This document shows positions 1,681 through 59,786 of a DNA stretch of 64,000 bases, in pieces; the stretch's first letter is position 1; every line of letters starts with the position of its first letter. Source of the stretch: Escherichia coli. GTDB lineage: Bacteria; Pseudomonadota; Gammaproteobacteria; Enterobacterales; Enterobacteriaceae. Where the stretch lies: NCBI RefSeq assembly GCF_003334355.1, contig NZ_QOWP01000008.1; one strand, 5' to 3'. A model generated the notes under the pieces. It saw nothing but the letters and a program-made list of their open reading frames with translations, did not search any database and was not told the DNA's origin. A program made the position numbers and the translations under genes.

Positions 1681-1817
1681 GATTAATCCTTTAAACGAGT
1701 AGCTAAGCCGTTGAAAGCATACTCTTCTTTCCCTCCTGTTTAGCGCCTGATATCCCTTTTCAGATTTCTGCCCGACGCATGTCATTTTTTTATGCATTGT
1801 TCTTTTTGTGATCTAAA

Positions 1818-1893
1818 TTGTAGTACAACAATATAAGTTTGTACTACATTACGCACACGGCAAACGCGAACGTCATCACGCTGGTACTACAAA
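1818..1893. promoter_or_regulatory. dgo promoter region with three TGTA-N-TACA-type GntR/FadR-family operator repeats (putative DgoR sites)
   Basis: tgtagtaca (~1820-1828), tgtactaca (~1840-1848), ggtactaca (~1883-1891) upstream of dgoR. Confidence 0.6.
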
Positions 1894-1957
1894 GTTGCCG
1901 CGTTATGCATCGATCGGGGTAAAGTAGAGAAGAACATACAGAGCACAAGGACTCTCC

Positions 1958-2647
1958 ATGACTCTCAATAAAACCGATCGCATTGTCATTACGCTGGGTA
2001 AACAGATCGTTCACGGCAAATACGTACCTGGCTCGCCACTTCCGGCTGAGGCGGAGCTCTGTGAAGAGTTTGCAACCTCGCGCAACATCATCCGTGAGGT
2101 GTTCCGTTCGTTGATGGCGAAACGGCTGATTGAAATGAAACGTTATCGCGGCGCGTTTGTGGCACCGCGTAACCAGTGGAATTACCTCGACACTGACGTA
2201 CTGCAATGGGTGCTGGAAAACGACTACGACCCACGGCTTATCAGTGCCATGAGCGAAGTGCGAAATCTGGTGGAACCGGCGATTGCCCGTTGGGCAGCAG
2301 AGCGCGCGACCTCCAGCGATCTGGCGCAGATTGAATCGGCGCTGAACGAGATGATTGCCAACAATCAGGACCGCGAAGCGTTTAACGAAGCGGATATTCG
2401 CTACCACGAGGCGGTGCTGCAGTCGGTGCATAACCCGGTGTTACAGCAACTTAGCATTGCGATCAGTTCGCTGCAGCGGGCGGTTTTTGAACGAACCTGG
2501 ATGGGCGATGAGGCCAACATGCCGCAAACGCTCCAGGAACATAAGGCGCTGTTCGATGCGATACGGCATCAGGACGGCGATGCGGCAGAGCAGGCGGCGC
2601 TTACCATGATCGCCAGCTCGACACGAAGGTTAAAGGAAATCACATGA
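1958..2647 (+). CDS. dgoR: GntR/FadR-family repressor of the D-galactonate operon
   Basis: 229-aa ORF; N-terminal winged HTH and FCD-like C-terminal domain; first gene of the dgo cluster. Confidence 0.9.
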   Translation: MTLNKTDRIVITLGKQIVHGKYVPGSPLPAEAELCEEFATSRNIIREVFRSLMAKRLIEMKRYRGAFVAPRNQWNYLDTDVLQWVLENDYDPRLISAMSEVRNLVEPAIARWAAERATSSDLAQIESALNEMIANNQDREAFNEADIRYHEAVLQSVHNPVLQQLSIAISSLQRAVFERTWMGDEANMPQTLQEHKALFDAIRHQDGDAAEQAALTMIASSTRRLKEIT

Positions 2648-33693: not shown

Positions 33694-33754
33694 ACCGTTG
33701 TTGTCATTTGTTTTACAAAAGCAAGGGATTAAATCTCCTCCAATGGACAAAAAA

Positions 33755-58961: not shown

Positions 58962-59786
58962 CTATTTCTTCTCTGTAATTTTTACACTGTTTTCCAACTG
59001 CTTGATGCTGACCTGCGGGGTCGGCAACTCCTCAGGCATGGTTCCGCCAAGTTCCTGAATGGTTTGCCTCACCTTGCGACCCACGTCAAAGTGTGTGGTG
59101 TTTGCTTGCTGTTTTGAATTCACGCCATCCCGCTTGAGTTTTTCTTCTGTTTGGGTAGCTCGAAAGAGATTAGCCGCCAGTTCTGTTGAACCCATATGAT
59201 CCAGGATCTTCTGACTCTTTTTCAGCCCCTTCCGCTGATGGATGGCTTTCTGATCTAATCCACCATACAGCCCCCGGTAACCATGATTCTGAAATATGGC
59301 GAAATCGATAGCTGTCGCTACCCCAGCTTGCTGCGCTGCCTCAACTAATTGTTTGTTATGTTCTTTCAATTCATTTCTCAGAAAAAGACGCTTTTCGTCT
59401 TCACGAAGTTGCCTGAAAGCTTCATCGTCAGCCAGCTCCTGCCGTCGGGTCTGGATAGCAAAATAAGTTTGCCCTGCCGCAATAACCGGTTTCGCAGGGT
59501 CGCCGTTTTGTACTACCAGGTAACAGGCATAGCGGGAGAGATGAACATCTTCAAGTTCTCGTTGAGCCCCTGAACCTAATACAACCATTTTGGTGGTTTC
59601 AACGAAATGGTCAGATGCAGCTTGATTGCTGGCTTCGCACGCTTGAGTCGCGCGGGCAAGTACCTTTTGAAAATTGCGCCAGTCCCGATAATCCAGTAAC
59701 GGTGCCAATTCTCTCGCTGACCAAAATTCTTGCCCTTCAGTGCCATAATGCCGTATTTCTTCAAAAGGTTGATGATGTTCGTTCAT
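58962..59786 (-). CDS. dinD: DNA-damage-inducible protein DinD
   Basis: ORF 58962..59798; start at MNEHHQPFEE gives 274 aa; LexA box 46 bp upstream. Confidence 0.85.
   Translation of the reverse strand: MNEHHQPFEEIRHYGTEGQEFWSARELAPLLDYRDWRNFQKVLARATQACEASNQAASDHFVETTKMVVLGSGAQRELEDVHLSRYACYLVVQNGDPAKPVIAAGQTYFAIQTRRQELADDEAFRQLREDEKRLFLRNELKEHNKQLVEAAQQAGVATAIDFAIFQNHGYRGLYGGLDQKAIHQRKGLKKSQKILDHMGSTELAANLFRATQTEEKLKRDGVNSKQQANTTHFDVGRKVRQTIQELGGTMPEELPTPQVSIKQLENSVKITEKK

Follow-up and report, generated by a model that had tools for sequence, protein, structure and literature searches.

How many operators does DgoR use to control the dgo operon of Escherichia coli? In PMC11705089 and PMC12288454, which draw on the work of Singh et al. 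(2019 J Bacteriol), the DgoR operator is described as two inverted repeats, IR1 and IR2, the second of which carries one mismatch. A first-pass annotation of the DNA considered here marked three related repeats upstream of dgoR, and two of them prove to be the published pair. The question raised by this locus is what the third repeat is for, and whether it too is an operator for DgoR.

The stretch of DNA that was analyzed, hereafter called the window, is 64 kb long and corresponds to the E. coli chromosome at yidX/dgoRKADT. In a K-12-like genome, the gene order at this locus is recF-gyrB-yidB-yidA-yidX (minus strand) and then dgoR-dgoK-dgoA-dgoD-dgoT (plus strand). Bases 1400-2700 match 5,425 of 5,426 complete E. 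coli genomes, and the annotation over this segment is yidX, dgoR and dgoK. The yidX coding region ends at about position 1681 on the minus strand, and the three repeats all lie in the 276-bp intergenic region between yidX and the following gene.

1958 to 2647, plus strand: dgoR, encoding a GntR/FadR-family repressor; first gene of dgoRKADT; RefSeq annotation DgoR at 100% identity.

The translated reading frame carries a Pfam GntR winged helix-turn-helix domain at its N terminus (7e-14) and an FCD domain at its C terminus (3e-27), a combination that places the protein in the FadR subfamily. A regulator with both domains is encoded beside the repeats.

The dgoR region is not intact in every strain. 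Bases 1400-2700 are covered to at least 80% in 5,006 of the 5,426 complete E. coli genomes and a 171-bp promoter segment is matched in 5,022, leaving approximately 400 genomes without an intact match to the dgoR region. This pattern suggests that the region may have been deleted or disrupted recurrently in E. coli. Eleven matches to the dgoR region reside on plasmids.

Each of the 9-mers reported by the first-pass annotation is where it was said to be: tgtagtaca at 1819-1827, tgtactaca at 1840-1848 and ggtactaca at 1883-1891. Their separations, given as roughly 20 bp and 43 bp, measure 21 bp and 43 bp from start to start. The first two had also been called inverted; since each 9-mer is itself a palindrome, this amounts to no more than a central G in one and a central C in the other. 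Around its central base, every 9-mer can be lengthened to 11 bp, giving the pattern TTGTA-N-TACAA.

1818 to 1828, no strand: site 1, the published IR1 and first DgoR operator; TTGTAGTACAA, palindromic throughout with 0 mismatches, starting at -140 from the ATG.
1839 to 1849, no strand: site 2, DgoR operator 2, the published IR2; TTGTACTACAT, 1 mismatch, starting at -119 from the ATG.
1882 to 1892, no strand: site 3, predicted third DgoR operator; TGGTACTACAA, 1 mismatch, at -76 to -66 from the ATG.

Five 11-mers in the 64-kb window match this form with at most one mismatch, and three of these fall within a single 75-bp stretch upstream of dgoR. When the sequence was shuffled locally 2000 times, the mean number of matches was 1.6, and none of the 2000 shuffles placed three of them within 80 bp. 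A chance origin of the three-site cluster is excluded. The only other matches to TTGTANTACAA with at most one mismatch in the window are found at 33708-33718 (TTGTTTTACAA), isolated in an AT-rich region adjoining the adenine deaminase gene ade, and at 59508-59518 (TTGTACTACCA), isolated within the dinD coding sequence. Both are probably fortuitous.

The repeats had been proposed to match the operator pattern of the FadR subfamily of GntR regulators, and this holds. Operators of this subfamily consist of TKGT and ACMA boxes with a 3-nt gap between GT and AC, and DgoR is named explicitly among the regulators concerned (Suvorova, Korostelev and Gelfand 2015, PMC4494728). Site 1 (TTGT-AGT-ACAA) and site 3 (TGGT-ACT-ACAA) fit these boxes fully, and site 2 (TTGT-ACT-ACAT) fits them save for its last base. 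The looser, generic FadR pattern TNGTNNNACNA shows no enrichment over the 64 kb of the window, with 8 instances found versus 10.7 expected. This means that only the specific 11-mer is informative, and the generic pattern was dropped as evidence.

For sites 1 and 2, the identification does not depend on pattern matching. The published IR1 oligonucleotide, CTAAATTGTAGTACAACAATAT (PMC11705089), is identical to window positions 1813-1834. A combination of Sort-Seq and DNA-affinity mass spectrometry located a DgoR-dependent repressor site at -140 to -110 from the ATG (Belliveau et al. 2018, PMC6003448), which in window coordinates is 1818-1848. Sites 1 and 2 together span -140 to -109 and coincide with this interval in the comparison with the published footprint that had been suggested beforehand; site 3, at -76, lies outside it. 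DgoR was pulled down with DNA covering -145 to -110, and the signal disappeared both in a dgoR deletion and in the presence of galactonate (PMC6003448). In electrophoretic mobility shift assays, DgoR bound a 55-nt probe carrying IR1 and IR2 in a galactonate-sensitive manner with a KD of about 0.5 uM (PMC11705089). DgoR is reported to be a dimer, and no contact between DgoR dimers is known. The established main operator of DgoR consists of sites 1 and 2. The earlier claim that the repeats are autoregulatory operators for DgoR is therefore secure for these two, and for site 3 it stands as a prediction, made by comparative genomics in 2015 and joined here by conservation. With sites 1 and 2 known by experiment and site 3 by published prediction, the finding as a whole is known biology.

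In Shigella flexneri (the DgoR_SFL rows of the S1 File of Suvorova et al. 2015), IR1, the strongest operator, is mutated to TTGTAGCGCAA, in which the right half is broken; sites 2 and 3 are intact in the same rows.

The meaning of site 3 depends on where it sits relative to the promoters of the operon. A class II CRP site with TGTGA has been reported at -160 to -140 from the ATG, overlapping the -35 region, together with a sub-optimal wild-type -10 element, TACATT, in the -120 to -100 region and a second RNA polymerase site at -70 to -30 that is active in glucose (PMC6003448). The last of these corresponds to window positions 1888-1928. In the window, these elements can be placed as follows.

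1804 to 1825, plus strand: class II CRP site, its 22-bp extent inferred; the left half TGTGA is at 1807-1811, and its right half shares bases with the left half of operator 1.
1845 to 1850, plus strand: -10 hexamer TACATT of P1, the CRP-dependent, galactonate-inducible promoter; lies within IR2.
1895 to 1925, plus strand: P2, the downstream promoter, with a weak putative -35 (TTGCCG, 1895-1900) and a putative -10 (TAAAGT, 1920-1925).

From the position of the -10 and from the center of the CRP site (1814.5) plus 41.5, the P1 start would be near 1856-1858. Scanning 1650-2000 for sigma-70 consensus promoters gave no hit, so the promoter positions rest on the data of Belliveau et al. (2018) and on conservation. 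Among the 79 Enterobacterales promoters described below, GGTAAAGTAG at 1917-1927 is almost invariant, and it probably carries the P2 -10; the presumed -35 is poorly conserved (nTGnGG). The first-pass annotation had the repeats overlapping the dgo promoter. This is correct for sites 1 and 2, which lie on the galactonate-inducible promoter, and does not extend to site 3, which lies about 30 bp downstream of the inferred start of that promoter and adjoins the second RNA polymerase site.

A GATC at 1810-1813 is located inside the CRP left half-site (TGTGATC) and is nearly invariant in the 79 species. It precedes IR1 by 5 bp, has its A at -147 from the ATG, and matches the single hemimethylated GATC (-147) reported for dgoR of Salmonella, whose ON/OFF heterogeneity is influenced by Dam (PMC7708049). 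A second GATC is present at 1913-1916 in the P2 spacer. At 1852-1856, the window reads TTACGCACACG versus TTACACGCACG in K-12-like strains, and other E. coli carry further SNPs there; this variable patch coincides with the inferred P1 start and lies between two invariant operators. The pentamer TCACG at 1876-1880, a little upstream of site 3, was considered as a CRP-like class I half-site for P2 and rejected, since the left half that would pair with it neither resembles the consensus nor is conserved. E. coli ECCTRSRTH03 carries an IS66-family element (ISEc23-like tnpA/tnpB/transposase) at about position 1656 of its locus, equivalent to about 1946 in the window, which places it downstream of the dgo promoter and upstream of the Shine-Dalgarno sequence of dgoR. 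The operon is thereby cut off from the three operators and from P1 and P2 alike.

Conservation of the repeats in orthologous dgo promoters had been set beforehand as a test of their function. We fetched 80 dgoR loci, one per species, from across the Enterobacterales and aligned the 230 bp preceding the ATG in 78 of these and in the window, giving 79 promoters. All three sites are kept. The mean column majority is 0.98 for the CRP half-site, 0.99 for site 1, 0.59 for the spacer between sites 1 and 2, 0.95 for site 2, 0.54 for the stretch after site 2, 0.91 for site 3, 0.70 for the 24 bp past site 3, and 0.93 for GGTAAAGTAG with the P2 -10. Site 3 is thus a conserved island in these 79 promoters, flanked by sequence at 0.54 and 0.70. 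Both TTTTGTGATC and GGTAAAGTA are nearly invariant as well, with TGTGA found 11 bp before site 1 in 79 of 79 promoters and GGTAAAGTA starting 38 bp past site 3 in 77 of 79. Within E. coli, the divergent strains sampled carried no SNPs inside the sites; their SNPs fall between them.

The three sites are not conserved in the same form. Site 1 is perfect in 73 of the 79 promoters, and site 2 has exactly one mismatch in 72 and at most one in 73. For site 3, 67 promoters show one mismatch and 10 show two, so that 77 have at most two, and in none of the 79 is it perfect. In Escherichia, Salmonella and several Citrobacter and Klebsiella, position 2 of site 3 is defective (TgGTA or TaGTA); most other genera have the defect at position 8 (TgCAA or TtCAA). 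Citrobacter and Raoultella each include both states, and in each case the opposite half-site is intact. If the two positions varied independently, about 12 perfect copies would be expected rather than 0, in a count that ignores phylogeny. In most species, the change converts the core AC of one half-site to GC or TC.

Distances between the sites are also maintained. Site 1 and site 2 are 21 bp apart in all 79 promoters, and site 2 and site 3 are 43 bp apart in 70, with 42-44 bp in the rest. The 32-bp stretch separating IR2 from site 3 is variable in sequence and nearly fixed in length. From site 3 to TAAAGT the distance is 38 bp in 77 of 79, and from TAAAGT to the Shine-Dalgarno sequence it varies between 27 and 32 bp. 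At 10.5 bp per turn, the conserved spacings of 21, 43 and 64 bp come to 2.0, 4.1 and 6.1 turns.

These data bear directly on whether site 3 might be a functionless chance match in an AT-rich intergenic region. Some support for this explanation comes from shuffling the 276-bp intergenic region, where a single match with at most one mismatch arises often enough (p of about 0.016) not to count as extremely rare, and the two other matches in the window, at 59508 in dinD and 33708 beside ade, look fortuitous. Against it, a copy with at most two mismatches occupies the same position in 77 of 79 species while the flanks have diverged to a column majority of about 54%. The chance reading, which we regard as very improbable, is effectively refuted by this conservation.

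A more serious alternative is that site 3 is conserved for some other reason, for example as an element of P2 (upstream or close to the -35), as the site of another regulator, or as a 5'-UTR element of the P1 transcript. Its likeness to a DgoR operator would then be vestigial or coincidental, and sites 1 and 2 would still be DgoR operators. The spacing of site 3 is indeed held most tightly relative to the P2 -10 box, at 38 bp in 77 of 79, and less tightly relative to IR2. Moreover, site 3 is never a perfect palindrome, and its AC core is broken in most species; this altered core in one half-site may be enough to abolish DgoR binding. By mutational scanning, a derepression shift was reported only at -140 to -110, with none at -76 to -66, and the RNA polymerase site at -70 to -30 was active in glucose (PMC6003448). 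Reg-Seq reported no extra sites at dgoR, and the two-repeat model was still in use through 2025. Yet across 79 species the two halves of site 3 still read as TTGTA/TACAA half-sites of the DgoR type, and the defect shifts between halves with the other half perfect, which RNA polymerase or a factor that does not read palindromes would not require. Site 3 also resembles IR2 in its central base and its 11-bp length, and it was independently assigned to DgoR by comparative genomics (PMC4494728). As for the screens, Reg-Seq also missed a known DgoR ‘right site’, and assays of this kind, Sort-Seq included, are too insensitive to exclude a weak site; the 55-nt EMSA probes are too short for the 75-bp span from IR1 to site 3. 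On balance, a role for site 3 apart from DgoR seems unlikely, although it carries more weight than chance.

A strong repressive role for site 3 is likewise unlikely because P2 is active in glucose with DgoR bound and no derepression signal was reported at -76 to -66, so any effect would be modest. Suvorova et al. (2015) list three predicted DgoR sites for E. coli b4479 (PMC4494728, S1 File, FadR sheet), including CACGCTGGTACTACAAAGTTG, which is site 3, and all three sites in the window equal the listed E. coli sites verbatim save for one flanking SNP. The same triplet is also predicted in E. fergusonii, Enterobacter 638, Cronobacter, Klebsiella, Shigella, Salmonella and Serratia (PMC4494728). 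Site 3 is most simply read as a weak third DgoR operator because both of its halves keep the form of a DgoR half-site, it appears as a footprint-like island of conservation, and it stays at a set distance from both IR2 and the P2 -10. Overall, we think it quite probable that the three palindromes are DgoR operators in the control region of the autoregulated dgoRKADT operon, with site 3 as a predicted weak auxiliary one.

The persistence of a single defect further suggests that site 3 may be under selection for low affinity. This would fit a promoter whose leakiness has to supply sufficient DgoR and DgoT for autoregulation and induction. By extension, the two-repeat model would be incomplete: a predicted third operator would be kept sub-optimal by selection, its defect switching half-sites among genera and its position fixed 43 bp (about 4 turns) from IR2 and 38 bp from the P2 -10, and it would either set basal autoregulated DgoR and DgoT expression from P2 or stabilize a complex of three dimers. 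We regard this fuller proposal as one that could equally well prove right or wrong.

How such an arrangement would operate can be sketched. In the literature, DgoR dimers on IR1 and IR2 block RNA polymerase, and D-galactonate releases DgoR. At P1, IR1 and IR2 overlap the right half of the CRP site together with the -35, and also the -10 (TACATT); because of this overlap, bound DgoR excludes RNA polymerase. Site 3 would lie at about +30 from the P1 start and end 2 bp before the assigned P2 -35 (TTGCCG), where a DgoR dimer could dampen P2, the weaker of the two promoters. Positioned about 4 turns from IR2 and about 6 from IR1, site 3 might also stabilize the repression complex on the same face of the DNA, a possibility raised by its helical phasing with the other two sites. 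As a weak site, it could tune the basal dgoR and dgoT expression needed for induction.

The result confirms that a real, published operator set can be recovered by reading the sequence alone. If site 3 is bound by DgoR, this would be a minor refinement of our understanding of how the dgo operon maintains its repressor and transporter at a sufficient basal level. It would also add one more FadR-family repressor with a weak auxiliary operator, leaving the picture of the family unchanged. The dgo operon has been mutated repeatedly in gut colonization and is a target of phage P22 Pid; the P22 Pid paper (Cenens 2013) holds no operator information.

The first system for comparison is the published E. 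coli DgoR operator itself. IR1 and IR2 are the same as sites 1 and 2, with identical sequence, the same location at -140 to -110, and the same overlap with the class II CRP site and TACATT. The published model comprises these two repeats only, whereas site 3 at -76 is outside both that model and the 55-nt EMSA probes. The DgoR sites of Suvorova et al. (2015, PMC4494728) form the same triplet and are purely computational; the list comes without promoter positions, an analysis of spacing, or a remark that the third site is always imperfect.

Among other FadR-subfamily repressors, LldR is the closest mechanistic analog. At E. coli lldPRD, separate palindromic operators O1 and O2 flank the core promoter, and repression is proposed to require that they share the same angular orientation and that the DNA loops (PMC8689689). 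Site 3, located downstream of P1 and phased with IR1 and IR2, resembles this layout, but DgoR would have two adjacent operators on the promoter and one predicted operator downstream, unlike the flanking pair of LldR. The LldR operators are reportedly more than 100 bp apart, compared with the 43-64 bp that separate the DgoR sites here. A second parallel is offered by NanR at E. coli nanA, where three dimers of this GntR-family protein occupy a (GGTATA)3 operator whose closely spaced repeats overlap the promoter (PMC8012715). The DgoR triplet is like the NanR operator in its number of repeats. The two systems differ in what is read, since NanR recognizes contiguous direct hexamer repeats, whereas the DgoR sites are 11-bp palindromes placed 21 and 43 bp apart.
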